A stretch of DNA of 64,000 nucleotides from the sequence record PQ863253.1, one strand, 5' to 3'. This DNA comes from Escherichia phage Ptacy1496. Both the position numbers and the translations under genes were made by a program. The notes under the pieces are model-generated. The model had not been told where the DNA came from. It saw nothing but the letters and a program-made list of their open reading frames with translations, and searched no databases. This document shows, in pieces, positions 1,520-43,367 of this stretch; position 1 is the first letter of the stretch; every line of letters starts with the position of its first letter.

Positions 1520-2524
1520 TTAACTTACCAATTCAATCCAAGCCGGACGAAGTACATCTTGTACCATTTTAACTAATTCCTTCTTAATCAAAGAAGGATT
1601 ATCCGCTTGAGTTAGAGTAATACCTTCACGAGAAGTTTCTTCCAAAATATCTTGAACAGTTAGCCCCATCACCTTTCCAAAATCTTTTGGACCAATTTCA
1701 CCAATTTTAGAAATAACGTTATTTACTCGGTTCAGTGTAACGTAACAAGCTAAAATTCCAACCAATTTGTTATCAGCTTCTGACAGTTCAACTTTAGCTT
1801 TAATAGGCTTATCAGACTTTTTCTTTTCACTAAATTTAGAGTTCTTGCATTTGATAGCTACGCGATTGCCATTAGGCATCCAAGAAGGATAACAAGGTTT
1901 CAATACATATCCTTCAGCGGTAAATACTTCGCCTTTTACTTCAGCATTCCAAACGCATTTATTTGCATCAACTAATCCAGCATGGTCTACCGTAAAATTA
2001 TAATCCTGGACGACAGAATCTAAATCATTTGGCAATTTAATAAGTTCTTCAAATTTACCACGACCTAAAAGTGGAGCCATTTTAAATTTAAATGTATTAC
2101 AAAATGATTCCATCATATAATCATCGACATAAGTCACATCACCACTTTCTGTAGTGACAATAATGTCAAATACATAAAAATCTTTATCGCCATAATCGAC
2201 ATTCTTCTGAATGCCAGGTCCAGCGAATTCACCAAAGACTTGATAAGATACAACCGCTGAGGTTTCCATAATATCTTGTACTGCTTTAATAGAATCTTCG
2301 TAATTCTTTAGAATAATTTCATACCCAAAGAAATCTTCAGCAGGAAGAATCGGTCCAGTACGTTTAGCGCAAGTTACTTTATCACGCTCAATAATCAATG
2401 AGAAATTTGTGCCGTGAATCTTTTCACGAGCTACCCACTCCCCACCAGTCAATCCCAAGCTATAAAGTTTTTCAATAAATTTAGAGTTGTAATGATTTTC
2501 AAGACTGCTATACTTTTTAAACAT
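1520..2524 (-). CDS. rnlB: RNA ligase 2
   Basis: 334 aa; KIHG nucleotidyltransferase lysine motif near N-terminus; recognised as T4 Rnl2. Confidence 0.93.
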
Positions 2525-2533
2525 AATTAATCC

Positions 2534-2812
2534 TCAAAATGTAATTTCTAACCAATCACCATCACGCTGATCACTATTGACTTTAAAGCTGAATCCTTCT
2601 TTTCTCAGCCAATCACCAATTTCTTCAGTAATCAATTTATCACGAGCAATACAATAATAACTAAAATGTGTTTTACCTTGTTCAGCTGCTTTATTAGCAA
2701 GTTCCGAAAAATCTTTAATAAAACACTCTAGCTTAAACTGTTTACTTTTAAGTGCTTTTTCGCGCAATTGATTAGCAAAAGATTCATTTTCATAAAGATC
2801 ATACTGTTCCAT
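2534..2812 (-). CDS. Hypothetical protein (24.2 position)
   Basis: 92 aa ORF, tight packing with neighbours. Confidence 0.6.
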   Translation of the reverse strand: MEQYDLYENESFANQLREKALKSKQFKLECFIKDFSELANKAAEQGKTHFSYYCIARDKLITEEIGDWLRKEGFSFKVNSDQRDGDWLEITF

Positions 2813-3014
2813 TTTTCACCTTTTTATTGATATGTCTTTTTCTATAGACGACTTTTTCTCGAGTTTCAAATTTATTTTTAGCAGTCATAGCTCGAGCCCA
2901 TAATACAGCCACTTCTTTTGCCTGTAAGTTTAATTCACGAGCAATTTCAATGAATGACTTTCCAGACTCATGAAGAGTAAACACCACAACCTCAGTTCTC
3001 ATAATCAATCTCAT
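2799..3014 (-). CDS. Hypothetical small basic protein, possible HTH (24.3 position)
   Basis: 71 aa ORF overlapping the upstream ORF end by a few codons. Confidence 0.55.
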   Translation of the reverse strand: MRLIMRTEVVVFTLHESGKSFIEIARELNLQAKEVAVLWARAMTAKNKFETREKVVYRKRHINKKVKNGTV

Positions 3015-3082
3015 GTTATCGAGTTGGTGCCATTATATACATCATTTTCTGATTGTGTTTTGTGTGCTTTCAAAATGAAGAA

Positions 3083-3096
3083 AGGGGCCGAAGCCC
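3083..3096 (-). terminator. GGGGC-UUCG-GCCCC hairpin downstream of hoc, followed by U-rich tract on minus strand
   Basis: Inverted repeat with UUCG loop immediately 3' of hoc stop. Confidence 0.5.
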
Positions 3097-3103
3097 CTTA
3101 TGA

Positions 3104-4522
3104 TTATGGATAGGTATAGATGATACCAGTTTCTAAAGCAGTTTTATGAATGATGTATCCATTACGCGATTCTTGAACATCAACTTCTGGATAGTCTTTC
3201 ATCATCTTCTGAAGAGTGTAACGATGTAGGTAATATTTACTATCTGGGTCGTCAGTTTTCCAATCTTTACCTTCTTCGGTCATTTTTTGGATTTCATCCA
3301 TAACCCACCAACCGCACCAGATATAAGCTGAAGTACGATGTGGAAGAGGATGAACATAAGGTAGTTCACCTTCTGGTTCTGGAGCAACTTTATCAGTTAC
3401 CTGAACTTGACCTTCTGCTGTAATAGTTTTGCTATCGTAATCAGTTGCAGTAACGACAGCAGTAACTTCAATAGTTTGACTTCCAACAGATGAGGTATCG
3501 ACAGTATATACGTTAGTTGACCCTTCTACAGGAGAAGAATCTTTCTTCCATGAGTAAGTAATTTGTGCTTCTTCTGGAGCACCCGTAACATTAGCCGTAA
3601 ATGTAGCCGGAGCATCTTGCTGAACATTAATAGAAGGAGGAGTCAATGTAACCTGTGGATTCATTGTCTTCTTATTAACTGTCAATGATACTTCATTAGA
3701 AGTAACTTCCTTTTCATTGTAATTTTCAGCAGTTACTTGGGCTACGCATTTAATTCTTTTTACTCCACTTGTAGTTGGAGTATAGCTAAATGTAGAGTTA
3801 GTTTCTCCACCAACTTGTGAATCATCTACATACCACTGATACGTAGCAGACGCTCCATCAGGTTGAGAAGCTAAGGCAGCAGTAAATTGAACTGGGGTTC
3901 CGATTACTCCCGCTGGAGGACTATCAGGAGTTACTGCCAAAGTAGTTGTCTGCGTCTTTTTATTAACAGTCAGTGACACTTCATTGGAAGTAACTTCCTT
4001 TGTATCATAATCTGTCGCGGTTACTTGAGCTACGCACTTAATTGTTTTAACTCCGCTTGCGTCAGGAGTGTAATTGAATGTAGTGCTAGTTGCTTCGCCC
4101 ACAGGAGAACCGTCAACGTACCATTGATACGTAGCGTTTGCACCTGATGGCTGTGAAGCTAAGGCAGCGGTAAATTCAATTGGAGTTCCAATCACTCCAG
4201 CATCAGGGCTACCAGGAGTTACTGCCAAAGTAGTTGTTTGTGTCTTATTTTGAACTGTGATAGTTGTACTAATTTCAGCTGTTTCAGGTTCAGATTCTGC
4301 AACTTGATTGGTTGCAACTACTTTAATAGTCTTTTGACCGGCAGGTCCTTTTAGTACATAACTAAAAGTTGCTGACGTTTCTTCCTGTGGAGCGTCGTCT
4401 ACAGTCCAAGCATATGTAATAGTTCCGCCTCCAGTTTCACCACTGGGTGTAGCAGTAAACTGCTTAGTTTCATCAATAACCCCTGTCGGTGTTTTAGGAG
4501 TTATATCAACTGTAAAAGTCAT
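3104..4522 (-). CDS. hoc: Highly immunogenic outer capsid protein Hoc, 472 aa variant with an additional Ig-like domain
   Basis: N- and C-terminal regions recognised as T4 Hoc (remembered as about 376 aa); internal tandem duplication of an Ig-like module. Confidence 0.9.
   Translation of the reverse strand: MTFTVDITPKTPTGVIDETKQFTATPSGETGGGTITYAWTVDDAPQEETSATFSYVLKGPAGQKTIKVVATNQVAESEPETAEISTTITVQNKTQTTTLAVTPGSPDAGVIGTPIEFTAALASQPSGANATYQWYVDGSPVGEATSTTFNYTPDASGVKTIKCVAQVTATDYDTKEVTSNEVSLTVNKKTQTTTLAVTPDSPPAGVIGTPVQFTAALASQPDGASATYQWYVDDSQVGGETNSTFSYTPTTSGVKRIKCVAQVTAENYNEKEVTSNEVSLTVNKKTMNPQVTLTPPSINVQQDAPATFTANVTGAPEEAQITYSWKKDSSPVEGSTNVYTVDTSSVGSQTIEVTAVVTATDYDSKTITAEGQVQVTDKVAPEPEGELPYVHPLPHRTSAYIWCGWWVMDEIQKMTEEGKDWKTDDPDSKYYLHRYTLQKMMKDYPEVDVQESRNGYIIHKTALETGIIYTYP
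3665..4250. repeat. Diverged tandem duplication (two units of about 290 bp) inside hoc encoding repeated Ig-like domains
   Basis: Two adjacent units align over their whole length, e.g. shared ...ccattgatacgtagc...gctaaggcagc(a/g)gtaaatt...ccaggagttactgccaaagtagttgt... Confidence 0.8.
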
Positions 4523-32556: not shown

Positions 32557-33735
32557 TTAAAAGTATTTTTTAAAACTCATCATAACTTTATCATCAACGT
32601 CATTATCAATCTGTGCTACAAGATAAGATGACAGTTCTACTTCTTGTGGCGCGGATTGAACATTATCAGAATTAAGATATTCACGAATCCAAGGATACGG
32701 ATGTTTAACCGGAGCATCGGTAATTGGGCATGGAAGACCACACTGTTTCATACGAGATACAGTTAAGTAATCAATAAAGCTCCACATGCTATTTGTATTT
32801 AATCCAGGAACATCGCCATCTTTAAATAAATGAACCGCCCAATCTTTTTCTTGGCGGTTAACTTCCATGAAAATATCAACTGCTTCTTGTTCACACTCTT
32901 GGGCAATTTTAACCCATTCATCGCCATCAGTGCCAAGTTGAAGTTGACGAATAATATATTGAGTACCTTTAAGGTGAAGTTGCTCATCGCGCGCAATGAA
33001 CTTCATAATCTTGGCATTACCTTCCATGATTTCCATGTTCTTATGGAAGTTAAAGGTACATGCGAAAGATACATAAAAACGAATAGCTTCCAATGCGTTG
33101 ATTACGTGCAGGCAGAGGTAAAGAGATTTCATTAGCTCACGCTTCCAATATGTCTCATGCTCAATAGCATCTTCAATAACGTCTTCGTCTGCATTAATTT
33201 CTTTTTGGTATTCGATATCAGCTTTAGCGTTTTCCCAATAACGAGTTTTAATTAGAACATCATCATAATAACGTCCAATTGATTCAGCACGTTTCATAAT
33301 AGCTTCATCTAGTACAATCTCATCAAATACCTTCGATGGATCAGTATAAAGATTTCGCATGATATGAGTATATGAACGGCTGTGAATAGTTTCACTAAAA
33401 GTCCATGTAGCAACCCATGTATCAAGACTTGGGTCTGAAATTAATGACATAAGTACAGCAGATGGCGCACGACCCTGAATGCTATCCAAAAGTGATTGAT
33501 ACTTCAAGTTATTAGTAAAAATATTCTGCTGATACTGAGGAAGTTTATTAAATTGTGCAGCATCCATCATTAAGTTTACTTCTTCCGGGCGCCAGAAGAA
33601 TGATAAAGACTTCTCAGTAAGTTCTTCAAATACTCTATGTCGTTGAATATCATAACGCGCAATACCAAGACCTGAACCAAAAAACATAGGTTCTTTTAAA
33701 ACATCAACTGGATTTGTATTAAAAACTGTAGACAT
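32557..33735 (-). CDS. nrdB: Ribonucleotide reductase small subunit, uninterrupted (no intron)
   Basis: 392 aa from MSTVF with GAGG RBS; continuous ORF. Confidence 0.93.
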   Translation of the reverse strand: MSTVFNTNPVDVLKEPMFFGSGLGIARYDIQRHRVFEELTEKSLSFFWRPEEVNLMMDAAQFNKLPQYQQNIFTNNLKYQSLLDSIQGRAPSAVLMSLISDPSLDTWVATWTFSETIHSRSYTHIMRNLYTDPSKVFDEIVLDEAIMKRAESIGRYYDDVLIKTRYWENAKADIEYQKEINADEDVIEDAIEHETYWKRELMKSLYLCLHVINALEAIRFYVSFACTFNFHKNMEIMEGNAKIMKFIARDEQLHLKGTQYIIRQLQLGTDGDEWVKIAQECEQEAVDIFMEVNRQEKDWAVHLFKDGDVPGLNTNSMWSFIDYLTVSRMKQCGLPCPITDAPVKHPYPWIREYLNSDNVQSAPQEVELSSYLVAQIDNDVDDKVMMSFKKYF

Positions 33736-34466
33736 TAATTTTTCCTCTTTAAAATTCTGCCGTGTTTCCAACCTGGCGGTATAATATCATCTTTACCTAT
33801 AAGCGTGCATTCACTTCCGTTATTAATCCATTTCTTACCGCGGATTCCTTTATAATCTCTTGGTTTTATTTTGTCAAACTTTGCATCAAGTTGATATGAC
33901 CATCTAAATCCATAAGCATATTGAAATTTACCCTCGGCACAATATTTGATATTTGACCCGTTTCCATTAACTGACCGGGACGCTGCCGCAATAGAGTGAA
34001 AGGTTTCTATGAAATCCCCATCTAATGAGAATTTATGTATTTCTACAGATGGGCACGCATATCTATTCACGTTAGATACATGCTGTTTAGTTTCGTTTTT
34101 ATGATGCTTGCCTAGCATCCCTTTAGGATGAGGATTATTTTTCCAATATTTCTTAAAGAACTCAGAATTAGCTTTAGCAAATAATTTTCTGTGTAAGCTG
34201 TACAATCTGTTATTAATTCTATTGCCAGCTTTATCTGTTGCCATTAACGTTAACGCAGAGGCAAGACCAAAATGACCTTCATTTATCTTACATAGTAATA
34301 GATGAGCTATAAAATGTTCTCTGGCTGTTAATTCAACTAAATTTTCCTTATCATCAGAACCTCCCATACATTTAGGGATTATATGATGTGTCTCTTTATA
34401 TTCTAGTAAAGATTCCCGAGCCTGAGCTCGGGAAATTAGGTCGTTATAGATTTTTTGATAATTCAT
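33735..34466 (-). CDS. mobE: HNH homing endonuclease (MobE-like), free-standing between nrdA and nrdB
   Basis: 243 aa; HNH motif HHIIPKCMGGSDDKENLVELTAREHFIAH; stop overlaps nrdB start (TAATG). Confidence 0.8.
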   Translation of the reverse strand: MNYQKIYNDLISRAQARESLLEYKETHHIIPKCMGGSDDKENLVELTAREHFIAHLLLCKINEGHFGLASALTLMATDKAGNRINNRLYSLHRKLFAKANSEFFKKYWKNNPHPKGMLGKHHKNETKQHVSNVNRYACPSVEIHKFSLDGDFIETFHSIAAASRSVNGNGSNIKYCAEGKFQYAYGFRWSYQLDAKFDKIKPRDYKGIRGKKWINNGSECTLIGKDDIIPPGWKHGRILKRKN

Positions 34467-37284: not shown

Positions 37285-38145
37285 TTATACCGCCATCTTT
37301 CCTTTAATTGGCGGGTGAGATACATAGTCGTTAAGAACAAAATTATGCGGCTTTGCGAATTGACTCAACCAAAATACCTGTGATTCTGTGTCCCATTCAT
37401 CAAATTCATCTGGGAATTTTAATTGTAATTCGCATAAATCCATAGGTTCACGACGCAAAATTTCTTTACATTGTTCTACGTGATTCATATAGATATGAGT
37501 ATTACCGCCAGAAAATATCAAATCTCCCGGAATAAGATTACATATCTTAGCTACAATATGAACTAACGCAGCATATGATGCAATATTAAATGGAAGACCG
37601 AGGAAAACATCTACTGATCGTTGATACCACTGAAGGTCAAGGTATCCATTACGAACATTAAATTGATAGAACATATGACAAGGTGGTAATGCCATCTGCT
37701 TGAGTTCAGCTGGATTCCATGCTGAAACAATTTGACGCCTATCATTTGGCAGTTTTTTAATACGATCAATAACTTCTATAATTTGGTCTACACCACCAAA
37801 ATCACGCCACTGTTTTCCATAAATTGGACCAAGTTCACCGCTATGGTATCCTAAATCTTTTGCTTGATTTTCGTAATTTTCATCCCAAACTGTTTTGCCT
37901 TGGATTAACGAATCATGTTGAATTAATCGCAAATCATTGACATTTGTGCTTCCCGATAAAAACCATATTAGCTCAGCAATGCAAGCTTTCCAGGCGAGCT
38001 TCTTAGTTGTTACTGCAGGAAAACCTTTAGTTAAATCCCAGCGTAATTTAGTACCGAACAAAGCAATTGTTCCTGTGCCCGTTCGGTCATCGGTTTCATA
38101 GCCATTTTCAAAAATGTCTTTAATTAAATCTTGGTATTGTTTCAT
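37285..38145 (-). CDS. td: Thymidylate synthase, uninterrupted (no group I intron)
   Basis: 286 aa continuous ORF with conserved TS active-site region (PPCH). Confidence 0.95.
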
Positions 38146-38190
38146 TTAGTACCTTATATAAATTATAATACATTTTATGAAGCTAAATAA

Positions 38191-38550
38191 TCAATACGGT
38201 TTAGCATCAAATTTTCTCTCAATTTCAGGCGTGAAATATAATTCTTTACCGCGTTTGGAAAAGCGACCAATAATATGATAATTATTCTCATCAAACGTGA
38301 TATTACCAATATCCATAGCTTTCAACCAAATATCGATATTTCTATCCAGCTTTATGTCAAAATTCCAATACGGAGAACTATTACCGAAAATACTGCAAGC
38401 GGATTCAGTGAAACAACTGCTATAAATCTTGTCTTTAGGAACTACTAATTGATAGACACCTTTAATAAACTGAGGACCCTGCCACTTTGGCTGTTTCGCG
38501 TCTTTTTCTAATAAAATAGGGTAATAATTAAAATTCATATTTTCCGCCAC
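38191..38550 (-). CDS. Hypothetical protein inserted between frd and td (115-119 aa; first ATG at 38538, ORF track start 38550 is GTG)
   Basis: Complete ORF filling the 413 bp between frd stop and td start. Confidence 0.6.
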   Translation of the reverse strand: MAENMNFNYYPILLEKDAKQPKWQGPQFIKGVYQLVVPKDKIYSSCFTESACSIFGNSSPYWNFDIKLDRNIDIWLKAMDIGNITFDENNYHIIGRFSKRGKELYFTPEIERKFDAKPY

Positions 38551-38558
38551 GCGTTATT

Positions 38559-39385
<827 letters not shown>

Positions 39386-39396
39386 TTTATCTCCTA

Positions 39397-39729
39397 TTAA
39401 AAAGGATCAGGAACATATCCACTAGCTTTAATCATTTTAATTAACGTTAACATTCCTTTATTAACTGCTAGTGAAATTTCATCAAAAACTTCATCACTAA
39501 AAAGTTCTAACACGCCCTTTTGAACTTTTAGTTTACAGCCAACAATTTCGTCATCGCCTATAGTAAATTCGTTTCCGCCAATTCCACCGAAAAACTTAAT
39601 TACACCAGTTAACTGTCTTCCACGAGAATATGGGTCGTGTGATAAAGTAATGTGAGTCACCCCAGATACAGTTTTAAATTGGCAGCGGATGTTTACTTGA
39701 GCAATTCCAGTTACATGAATGTCAGACAT
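39397..39729 (-). CDS. Hypothetical protein
   Basis: 110 aa ORF. Confidence 0.55.
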   Translation of the reverse strand: MSDIHVTGIAQVNIRCQFKTVSGVTHITLSHDPYSRGRQLTGVIKFFGGIGGNEFTIGDDEIVGCKLKVQKGVLELFSDEVFDEISLAVNKGMLTLIKMIKASGYVPDPF

Positions 39730-41109: not shown

Positions 41110-42015
41110 TTAAAGGTCATTCAAAAGGTCATCTAGGTCCGTGTCATCAGCACTAGATGAACTGCCAGAGCTTGAGCTCATAAAATCATCTTCAGTTTTT
41201 GTATTGAAGTCATCAACATTGAATGCATCCAAATCATCAGCAACTTTATCAGCTTTCTTAGCAGCAGTTGCAGCAGCACCGCCCATCACAGCAGTTCCCA
41301 TAACTTGACCGAATTTAGTATTCAGTTCTTCAAATGATTTGAATTTATCTTTAGAAGTCATTTCAGAAAGGTCAACCATTTGTTCGAACAGTTCTTTCTG
41401 GAAAGATTCATCATCAATGTTTGGAATCGCAGATTGATTCAGGAATTTAGATTCATCGTAGTTACTAAATCCGGAAACTTGTTTAACTTTCAGTACAAAG
41501 TTAGCACCTTCCCACGGACAAGTTACATCAACCGGAGTTTCACCCATTTCAACATCAACCGCAATCATTGCATTGATTTTATCCCAGATTTTCTTACCGA
41601 AACGATATTTAAATACTTTACCTTCATTTTCTGGAGCAGCTGGGTCTTTTACAACAAGAATATTAGCCCAGTAAGAAGTTTTACGTTTAACAAGACTGTA
41701 CTCTTTATTGTCAGTGTTGTACAGATCATTTTTACTGATGTACTGACATACTGGGCAAGAATCGTAATCACCATGGGTAGATGAACATGTTTCAATATAC
41801 CATTTACCATTTTTCTTGAAACCGTGATTTACAAGAATTGCGAATGGTGCTTGTTCATCATTTTTAGACGGAAGAAAACGAATTACTGCTTGACCGTTAC
41901 CCGCATTATCGAGTTTCAGTTTCCACTCGCCTTTATCTTCAGAAGAAAAACCTTTATTGCCATTCAGTTTAGCCATTTGTGCAGCAAGTTCAGCAGTAGA
42001 TTTACGTTTAAACAT
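41110..42015 (-). CDS. 32: Single-stranded DNA-binding protein gp32
   Basis: 301 aa; recognised as T4 gp32 including acidic C-terminal tail. Confidence 0.96.
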
Positions 42016-42095
42016 TTTATTTCCTTTTTAATTTAATTTAATTTAATTTAATTAACAGTTGGTGCTATGACACTTTACCTCATAGCTGGCATAAT
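42016..42095 (-). promoter_or_regulatory. Gene 32 autoregulatory translational operator: (UUAAA)n unstructured tract plus upstream pseudoknot-forming region
   Basis: mRNA-sense AAUUAAAUUAAAUUAAAUUAAA directly 5' of the 32 RBS, preceded by GUGCUAUGAGGUAAAGUGUCAUAGCACC. Confidence 0.75.
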
Positions 42096-42712
42096 TCGCA
42101 ATACTCTGGGTCTTCGAGAGGTATCCAACCTAAGTTGAAATACTTTACCATCGATTTAGCAGTTGTATCAGTTATATTTATATTACCTTTAACTCTTCGC
42201 CATCCAGGAGTTTTACCGTACAGATTAGAGGATAATAATAACACATAATTCTCGTAAGCAATATGAGATAATTTCCAAGACTCTATATTAGCTCGTGATG
42301 TTTTCCAAGGTCTAAAATCGTCACGGTTCATATAATTAGCCAATCTCATATGCTCTCTAACTTCCGGGTCTTTGGCTGGATGAGTTTCACCACTCACACC
42401 AAATCCACCACCAGCATATACCAGATTAAAATAGTCTGGATTATCTCTTGCATTTACTTCAAGTTGGTATTTTCGTTCTGCTTCAATAACATCCAAGTCA
42501 TCATCAATTTGAATTATTTTAACGCTCGGTTTTTGAAGCATTAGCGCATTCAAAAATCTTTTTTGTTTACATGAGCTCCAGTATTCCTTTCCGGAAGAGT
42601 CATATATTATTCCGTTCTCAAATGAGCAATTTAATTTACTACCGATATAATAGTATGGCGGAGTCTTATTTTTGACACGGTCTTCAAATGTAAACCAATA
42701 TACTATATTCAT
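42080..42712 (-). CDS. segG: GIY-YIG homing endonuclease (SegG-like)
   Basis: 210 aa; N-terminal GIY-YIG-like motif (IVYWF ... YYIGSK); position between 32 and 59. Confidence 0.7.
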   Translation of the reverse strand: MNIVYWFTFEDRVKNKTPPYYYIGSKLNCSFENGIIYDSSGKEYWSSCKQKRFLNALMLQKPSVKIIQIDDDLDVIEAERKYQLEVNARDNPDYFNLVYAGGGFGVSGETHPAKDPEVREHMRLANYMNRDDFRPWKTSRANIESWKLSHIAYENYVLLLSSNLYGKTPGWRRVKGNINITDTTAKSMVKYFNLGWIPLEDPEYCELCQL

Positions 42713-42713
42713 A

Positions 42714-43367
42714 TCAATACTTGCAAGATTTCACAGTTTCAATGAAAACACTTTTAGCTTTCTGTGAATCAATATTTAAAATTTTTCTATAAGCCTTTAA
42801 CTTTATAGAATAATTATTCCAGACTAAATTATCAGTCTGTTCATCATGTTTATCAATTATATTTAAAAACGAATCAAGCAAGATAAACGTCTCAAACGAA
42901 ATTATGTTCGATTGAAGTAGTTTAAAAATATAACTTGATTGAACTTTTGGATTATATTCAAAAATTTCTTTAAAAGCAGAAACTTCAACTTTTTTACTGA
43001 AATAGTAAATGTTGCGAATATCTTCTTCAAACTTAAATTTAATTTGCTTCAAGCGTCCGATATATTCACGATAAAACACAAGTGCATCAGCGTCAGAGAT
43101 GTCACCAATCCAAGCATCTTGGTTAGCTACAAGATTGCTAATAAAAATTAAAGTTAATTCTTTTAATTTATACTTTTCTGATAGCTTTTGGAAAAAATAC
43201 TTATCCCTTCGCTTTTGATAAGCGGCATCAGACACCCGCATGCACCAATTATACTTAATTACATCATACTTTCCATTCATATGTTGTTTTATCATTAAGT
43301 ATAATTTATAAACTGATTTACCATCAATGTATCTTTCACCACCAGCAGGCATGCGGAGTTTAATCAT
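42714..43367 (-). CDS. 59: Helicase loader gp59
   Basis: 217 aa; recognised as T4 gp59. Confidence 0.93.
   Translation of the reverse strand: MIKLRMPAGGERYIDGKSVYKLYLMIKQHMNGKYDVIKYNWCMRVSDAAYQKRRDKYFFQKLSEKYKLKELTLIFISNLVANQDAWIGDISDADALVFYREYIGRLKQIKFKFEEDIRNIYYFSKKVEVSAFKEIFEYNPKVQSSYIFKLLQSNIISFETFILLDSFLNIIDKHDEQTDNLVWNNYSIKLKAYRKILNIDSQKAKSVFIETVKSCKY

Follow-up and report, generated by a model that had tools for sequence, protein, structure and literature searches.

In bacteriophage T4, the genes frd and td, which encode dihydrofolate reductase (DHFR) and thymidylate synthase (TS), overlap directly. In the T4 genome (NC_000866), td runs to position 145112 and frd starts at 145109, giving a 4-nt ATGA overlap with nothing between the two genes, as an earlier note on the DNA described here had stated. 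This overlap, said to have been described by Purohit and Mathews in 1984, is the reference arrangement of the junction.

Many other T4-like phages carry a further gene at this position. In T2, T6, RB14, RB32 and RB51, the gene is catalogued as RB32ORF229c, a hypothetical protein (e.g., AXN58269.1 in T6), and its position, orientation and flanking spacers are as in the DNA analysed here, with synonymous differences only. The gene is therefore not a new object, being already known as RB32ORF229c and as a member of PHROG 1928. This group is catalogued without an assigned function, and membership gives no mechanism. Literature searches on RB32ORF229c and PHROG 1928, on the frd-td junction and on genes absent from T4 returned nothing on the ORF. 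More distant systems are found in Pectobacterium phage PM2 (gp191/gp192), Salmonella phage Melville, Enterobacter phage ZX14 and Kosakonia phage Kc304, which share both slot and family with the present locus, at 32-46% identity for the intervening protein. These four phages contain two copies each and a metagenomic contig (L016) contains three, in frames overlapping frd and td. The PM2 protein A0A0A0Q0X7 is predicted to have the same fold as the model described below (Foldseek, TM 0.66).

Two further kinds of element are relevant for comparison. Mobile accessory cassettes in T4-type phages are insertions flanked by promoter and stem-loop elements. The frd-td ORF protein resembles the homing endonuclease I-TevI and the Seg proteins in no more than a short GIY-like tetrapeptide within a beta strand and a location in a region rich in homing elements.

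The locus analysed here belongs to Escherichia phage Ptacy1496 (PQ863253.1). The window, i.e., the whole stretch of DNA analysed, comprises 64,000 nt, and frd, the ORF and td all lie on its minus strand. The features of the junction are the following:

37285..38145, minus strand: td, thymidylate synthase, 286 aa, no intron; Pfam Thymidylat_synt, E 5.4e-95 over residues 2-286; downstream neighbour of the ORF
38140..38148, minus strand: td-side copy of the 9-bp direct repeat TAAATGAAA, from the comparison of the window with T4
about 38160..38186, minus strand: promoter-like module TTAGCTTCATAAAATGTATTATAAT in the ORF-td spacer, from conservation and a sigma-70-like scan
38191..38538, minus strand: frd-td ORF, 115 aa plus stop, orthologue of RB32ORF229c; from the ORF list, PHROG 1928, dN = 0 and AlphaFold2
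38539..38550, minus strand: possible 4-codon N-terminal extension (MAEN) from a GTG, probably unused
38557..38565, minus strand: frd-side copy of the 9-bp direct repeat TAAATGAAA, read directly from the sequence
38559..39140, minus strand: frd, dihydrofolate reductase, 193 aa, so named in T6 and T4; Pfam DHFR_1, E 4.4e-19; upstream neighbour of the ORF

The frd stop and the td start lie 413 bp apart (38146..38558), the figure given in the earlier note, and one sizeable ORF lies inside. It is complete, as had been claimed, and can be read in two forms: 119 aa if a GTG is the start (38191..38550), and 115 aa if translation begins at the in-frame ATG at 38538. The ATG is invariant across the compared alleles. 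The GTG at 38550 is missing from the KFS-EC3 and F2/PTK alleles, in which this position reads CTGGCTGAAAAT and ACTGGCGGAAAAT, respectively. Because the ATG is kept and the GTG is lost in these alleles, the 115-aa form is taken to be the gene, and the GTG-started form is probably not used. Database entries for the protein give the 115-aa form. The ORF is separated from its neighbours by 20 nt on the frd side and 45 nt on the td side. Unlike the phages with tandem copies, the window thus contains one copy with spacers of its own and a promoter-like module before td; no paralogue was found elsewhere in the 64-kb window.

The frd-td ORF is a genuine protein-coding gene under very strong selection. 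Its protein is 100% identical to those of T2, T6, RB14 and KFS-EC3, and exactly this 115-aa protein occurs on 341 public contigs, every one of them labelled 'hypothetical protein'. The window copy differs from those of T6, AugustSocin, T2 and KFS-EC3 by 7, 8, 14 and 17 synonymous changes, respectively, and by no nonsynonymous change (dS 0.12-0.34). Across all pairs of these five copies, 7-18 synonymous differences were counted (dN = 0, dS 0.12-0.36), and the comparison with the diverged F2/PTK allele gives a dN/dS of about 0.04. A chance ORF is ruled out by this result, with 0 nonsynonymous differences among the T2-type copies. Over the same genome pairs, dN/dS amounts to 0.03-0.22 for frd and 0.07-0.35 for td. 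Where it is present, the ORF protein is under tighter constraint than the products of the two genes beside it.

Two aberrant copies were encountered. In Escherichia phage Pu-Krd-SF1 (L024), the unannotated ORF is matched by tblastn in two pieces, a sign of either a frameshift or a sequencing error. In Yersinia phage ZN18 (L015:1538-1891), a change close to the gene's end has left the protein with a different C-terminus (…AKPLII). Both may be rare decaying copies.

The protein matches PHROG 1928 with an E-value of 9.5e-36, residues 8-115 aligning to positions 2-125 of the 126 in the profile. As far as sequence searches reach, the family is small and confined to phages. HMMER, run exhaustively against 1.84 billion representatives, yielded only 22 cluster representatives, all of about 95-116 aa without fused domains, apart from two longer matches (P0021 and P0023). 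These were rejected as spurious, one being a repetitive reverse-transcriptase fragment and the other having no domains, and offer no informative fusion. Six residues are invariant among 26 family sequences including paralogues, namely Q16, W19, G27, G91, K95 and G97, all of which are present in the window protein; L9, Y29, F93 and F102 are nearly invariant. The conserved stretches are LLExDxKQxKW in an N-terminal loop, HGIYxL in a strand and IGRFxKxGxxxxF in a C-terminal hairpin. The earlier impression that the protein has no recognisable motif was borne out by searches of Pfam, NCBIfam, PADLOC and the PDB (phmmer and family profile), none of which gave a match to the query. PADLOC, which is a library of defence proteins only, returned 0 matches. 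Searching all 26 members against Pfam produced only scattered single-member noise and no nuclease family.

The gene is widespread among T4-like phages. The 413-bp segment is found at a DNA identity of at least 80% in 362 phage records, including T2, T6, RB10, RB14 and RB51, and the same gene, at a protein identity of at least 90%, in 362 phage records, including T2, T6, RB14, RB32 and RB51. A tblastn search with the ORF protein reaches 588 records. In 226 of them the identity is below 60%, and these belong mostly to phages of Klebsiella, Salmonella, Enterobacter, Citrobacter, Serratia and Erwinia. The frd-ORF-td context of the window recurs in T6 and AugustSocin. Synteny across genera was sampled in five other genera of the Tevenvirinae and in two metagenomic T4-like contigs. 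The slot between DHFR and TS holds a homologue in Klebsiella phage KP17 (Jiaodavirus), Pectobacterium phage PM2 (Mosugukvirus), Salmonella phage Melville (Gelderlandvirus), Enterobacter phage ZX14 (Kanagawavirus), Kosakonia phage Kc304 and the contigs L016 and L020. Only the weakest family match (P0024, E 4.8e-4) lies outside this slot.

In KP17, PM2, Melville, ZX14 and Kc304, the frames of the homologues overlap those of their DHFR and TS neighbours, and in the last four a second small ORF is present in the slot. That of PM2 is a paralogue (E 3e-8) and likewise belongs to PHROG 1928. Contig L016 (SRR28387184) shows the largest expansion of the family among the genomes inspected, with three tandem PHROG 1928 members (148, 106 and 95 aa) and a 76-aa ORF between DHFR and TS (2245-3288). 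Within the same genomes, cross-genus identity is 32-46% for the intervening protein, 43-54% for DHFR and 73-78% for TS (57% in L016). The protein diverges in step with DHFR and TS, as expected for vertical inheritance.

Among close relatives, the junction occurs in three forms. For a survey, 60 records were sampled evenly from the 514 matching the T4 junction. About two thirds have the 115-aa ORF, with a span of about 657 bp. The empty junction of the T4 type, a single contiguous piece of 241 bp, is found in 6 of the 60 sampled Tequatrovirus-like records, and about one fifth of the sample contains an insert of roughly 206 bp. This insert encodes a 68-aa ORF of PHROG 9550, which has no assigned function, and is present in 165 records. 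Altogether, between about one quarter and one third of Tequatrovirus-like records have the slot empty or filled with the 68-aa ORF. In Yersinia phage fPS-65, an example of the 68-aa allele (L009:924-1130), the frame overlaps both frd and td. About 26 of the records are phages of Klebsiella, Serratia and similar hosts, at 60-80% DNA identity. The possibility that the 68-aa ORF of the fPS-65 type is a truncated copy of the 115-aa ORF was rejected, as the two are unrelated.

T4 itself contains no copy of the gene elsewhere. When the family HMM was searched against a six-frame translation of the whole T4 genome, no member was found (best E 0.52). The gene is therefore dispensable on laboratory E. 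coli. The alignment against T4 and other T-even genomes that the earlier note had proposed shows 417 bp to be lacking in T4, and T2, T6 and RB14 to carry the identical protein. The note had called the ORF a likely accessory insertion. The first half of this description stands, T4 having no copy; the second is not supported, since most relatives carry the ORF at the same spot. The same note had also considered that an orthologue might be conserved at this position in T4 as well as in most relatives; it is present in most relatives and missing from T4.

The genes from gene 32 through nrdA are all co-oriented, and no terminator-like site or stem-loop was found between frd and td. This fits co-transcription of the ORF with the nucleotide-metabolism genes, as had been presumed in the earlier note. 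The 45-bp ORF-td spacer contains the promoter-like module TTAGCTTCATAAAATGTATTATAAT (38162-38186), located 15-40 nt upstream of the td ATG. The module consists of a MotA-box-like GCTTCA followed by a perfect TATAAT after a 10-nt spacer or TAATTT after a 12-nt spacer. It is unique within the window and is kept in T2, T6, AugustSocin, KFS-EC3, N2 and ZN18. The F2/PTK allele is without this module of roughly 30 nt, and its ORF-td spacer measures only 13 nt. A sigma-70-like scan match lies at 38194..38165 on the minus strand. A loose MotA-type pattern occurs at 23 sites in the window, the TTAGCTTCATAAAATGTATTATAAT site included, compared with 8.8 expected, and 0 of 100 shuffles reached 23. The module is thus a candidate middle promoter for td and may provide td with a start of its own in those phages in which the ORF broke the frd-td overlap.

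Further polymorphisms were observed in the neighbourhood. Two ORFs lie between frd and frd.1 in the window on the minus strand, one of 81 aa (39140-39385, PHROG 3183) and one of 110 aa (39397-39729, PHROG 3566); neither PHROG has an assigned function. The gap from frd to frd.1 in T4 is only 71 bp, and the corresponding ORFs of T6 are labelled RB32ORF231c and RB51ORF237. The td gene of the window is intronless, and an Rfam scan of the window gave no RNA family and no group I intron in td. The I-TevI intron is present in td of T4, T6, Melville, N2 and ECML-134. The 115-aa ORF is combined with an intron-containing td in T6 and with an intronless td in T2 and the window, so the two polymorphisms are independent. 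Between the window and T2 (L007:3918-4778), td shows 61 nonsynonymous differences (dN 0.095), and the value is larger against KFS-EC3. Unlike td, the frd and ORF proteins are nearly identical over the pairs of window, T2 and KFS-EC3, which suggests that td segments are exchanged as a mosaic. Directly downstream of nrdA, at the place of mobE in T4, the window encodes a 243-aa protein (33735-34466, minus strand) that matches NUMOD1 and, weakly, HNH and is probably a homing endonuclease of the free-standing type. A 210-aa ORF (42080-42712, minus strand) lies between gene 32 (41110-42015) and the ORF at 42714-43367. The counterpart place in T4, between genes 32 and 59, is occupied by segG, and the 210-aa protein has no Pfam match at E <= 1e-3, GIY-YIG included.

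Taken as a whole, the locus is best explained by an ancestral slot gene that was deleted in T4 and that encodes a small early or middle binding protein, preferably with a host or defence target; we put the probability of this reading at roughly 60%. On this reading, the 115-aa gene would have occupied the frd-td slot of enterobacterial Tevenvirinae since their ancestor and would be translated early or middle in infection. In T4 and a small minority of Tequatroviruses, a 417-bp deletion between the TAAATGAAA copies would have joined the stop of frd to the start of td (ATGA); another subset carries the unrelated 68-aa ORF in the same slot. The protein may be translated from transcripts that it shares with DHFR and TS, at an early stage of infection. 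No catalytic motif was found, from which we infer a non-enzymatic protein; with its mass of 13.6 kDa and its mildly basic, aromatic-rich composition, it would most likely act by binding rather than by catalysis. It is suggested to be a modulator of a conserved host or defence factor rather than an obligate partner of DHFR or TS. A target of this kind is preferred because the slot tolerates loss and replacement, and because the family expands to two or three tandem paralogues elsewhere, an expansion typical of host-interaction genes. A housekeeping partner in nucleotide-precursor synthesis would account equally well for the absence of amino-acid changes within Tequatrovirus and for a divergence that follows DHFR.

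Such a partner is the subject of the first alternative, in which the protein serves the phage thymidylate cycle, i.e., DHFR-TS and the dNTP-synthesising complex, as a stoichiometric accessory subunit or adaptor, for example as a tether or regulator. The slot position is invariant across genera, the overlapping frames in KP17, PM2, Melville, ZX14 and Kc304 suggest translational coupling, the constraint is very strong, and the divergence tracks that of DHFR. However, T4 DHFR and TS are functional although the phage has no copy at all, and the many Tequatrovirus-like records with the 68-aa ORF or nothing in the slot speak against a stoichiometric subunit. Furthermore, gene order is conserved throughout T4-like genomes, which makes synteny a weak argument for functional linkage. 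An accessory subunit is regarded as unlikely, though as a serious competitor of the preferred reading.

In silico modelling bears on a further alternative. The protein has a pI of 8.5, 20 of its 115 residues are aromatic, and it contains no hydrophobic segment. AlphaFold2, run with a 23-sequence alignment, predicts with confidence a single domain (pLDDT 92, pTM 0.84) that is rich in beta structure; besides several strands, it has a single helix (68-76) and a long IGRFxKxG hairpin at the C-terminus. Foldseek found nothing significant for this model in the PDB (best E 0.48). In BFVD, every significant match is to a viral protein that is unnamed or uncharacterised; those with a name come from T4-like phages, namely PM2 and Muldoon and, more weakly, Cronus and the Aeromonas phages Ah1 and phiAS5. 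The sub-threshold PDB matches are dominated by OB-fold binders, namely HIN, Teb1, S1, Cdc13, RecO, RPA, SSB and RuvA domain I. The protein could accordingly be imagined as a small OB-like nucleic-acid binder, for example one that regulates the neighbouring genes by binding RNA or ssDNA. The order of elements in the model, strand-strand-strand-helix-strand-strand, resembles that of an OB fold, and the conserved residues W19, Y29, F93 and K95 (with R92 in most members) as well as the basic pI would suit such a role. The top structural matches are non-significant and are taken as a lead; this assignment is considered rather improbable.

A bolder proposal is also given little chance. The family might represent a third, so far overlooked component of the DHFR-TS module, with a fold absent from the PDB, that acts as an adaptor coupling or shielding the thymidylate cycle, for instance against host sensing or starvation of dTMP or folate metabolism. 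If this were true, the loss in T4 would explain some of the differences in host range or defence sensitivity between T2 or T6 and T4.

The next alternative concerns the origin of the gene and not its role. It holds that a recent accessory cassette was inserted into an ancestral frd/td overlap of the T4 type, the 9-bp repeat being the target duplication. T4 has the compact ATGA overlap, and the boundaries of the 417 bp missing in T4 coincide exactly with the direct repeat TAAATGAAA. The frd-side copy holds the frd stop TGA (38559-38561) and an ATG-AAA-TAA mini-frame, and the td-side copy holds the td start ATG (38143-38145). Flanking genes and sequences of T4 match the window on both sides of the repeat, and removing one repeat copy together with the intervening DNA (417 bp) from the window yields the T4 junction GTATATAAATGAAACAATACC exactly. 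Taken alone, the repeat gives no direction and is formally compatible with insertion and target duplication as well as with deletion. An insertion would also be in line with the polymorphism of the slot, including the unrelated 68-aa ORF in 165 records, and with the extra promoter-like module on the T2-type allele.

Several observations speak against insertion. In the F2/PTK allele, the frd-side stretch reads AAAAATGAAATAG and lengthens frd by 12 aa, so that frd overlaps the start of the ORF; a 2-nt deletion in the T2-type allele, relative to F2/PTK, creates the frd stop. Since this stretch is coding in F2/PTK, the frd-side repeat appears to be native to the ORF-bearing allele and not to have been copied from the td start. 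In the five other genera inspected, the slot is filled by homologues whose divergence parallels that of DHFR, and the empty junction is rare. Neither a transposase nor an endonuclease nor a stem-loop cassette accompanies the ORF. The earlier note had proposed to look for promoter and terminator remnants of a cassette at the flanks; there is no stem-loop, and the promoter-like module is found on the td side only and is missing in F2/PTK. The patchy, non-syntenic distribution of a mobile cassette was not seen either, the ORF being syntenic across the genera inspected. A recent insertion is therefore deemed very improbable.

Deletion in the T4 lineage is favoured instead because the frd-side repeat appears native, the gene is syntenic across genera and empty junctions are rare. 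The synteny strongly suggests that the ORF was already present at the root of the enterobacterial clade. The T4 state is thus best read, on the alignments, as a microhomology deletion that is derived and not ancestral. The ORF alleles of F2 (Tequatrovirus) and PTK (Mosigvirus) are nearly identical, which means that exchange between genera happens and makes loss followed by regain within Tequatrovirus conceivable. These comparisons indicate that recombination among T-even phages scrambles phylogeny.

The idea that the ORF is a small homing endonuclease or its remnant, which draws on the label 'putative homing endonuclease' given to the homologue in the records of the BASEL phages AugustSocin, TadeuszReichstein and FriedrichMiescher, on the superficial likeness of the conserved stretch 'KGVYQL / HGIYxL' to the GIY motif of I-TevI and on the td region being a known homing hot spot, is scarcely credible, as the protein differs from GIY-YIG homing endonucleases in having no significant profile similarity, no catalytic residues and another predicted fold. 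This candidate was rejected. No Pfam nuclease domain was detected in the query or in any of the 26 members. The alignment with I-TevI by hhalign covers 12 columns around the GIY-like tetrapeptide at a probability of 0.7%, the catalytic YIG, Arg and Glu are not conserved among the 26 family sequences, and the AlphaFold2 model does not resemble a nuclease-like fold.

The locus establishes no new principle and represents ordinary variation that is already catalogued. The ORF protein is among the most tightly constrained uncharacterised small proteins of the T-even nucleotide-metabolism cluster, and the combination of a confidently predicted fold without a solved relative and tight constraint makes it a clean and cheap target for functional work. 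For the T-even phages, the junction illustrates that T4 should not be taken as the ancestral model of its relatives: a gene that is extra relative to T4 need not have been inserted.
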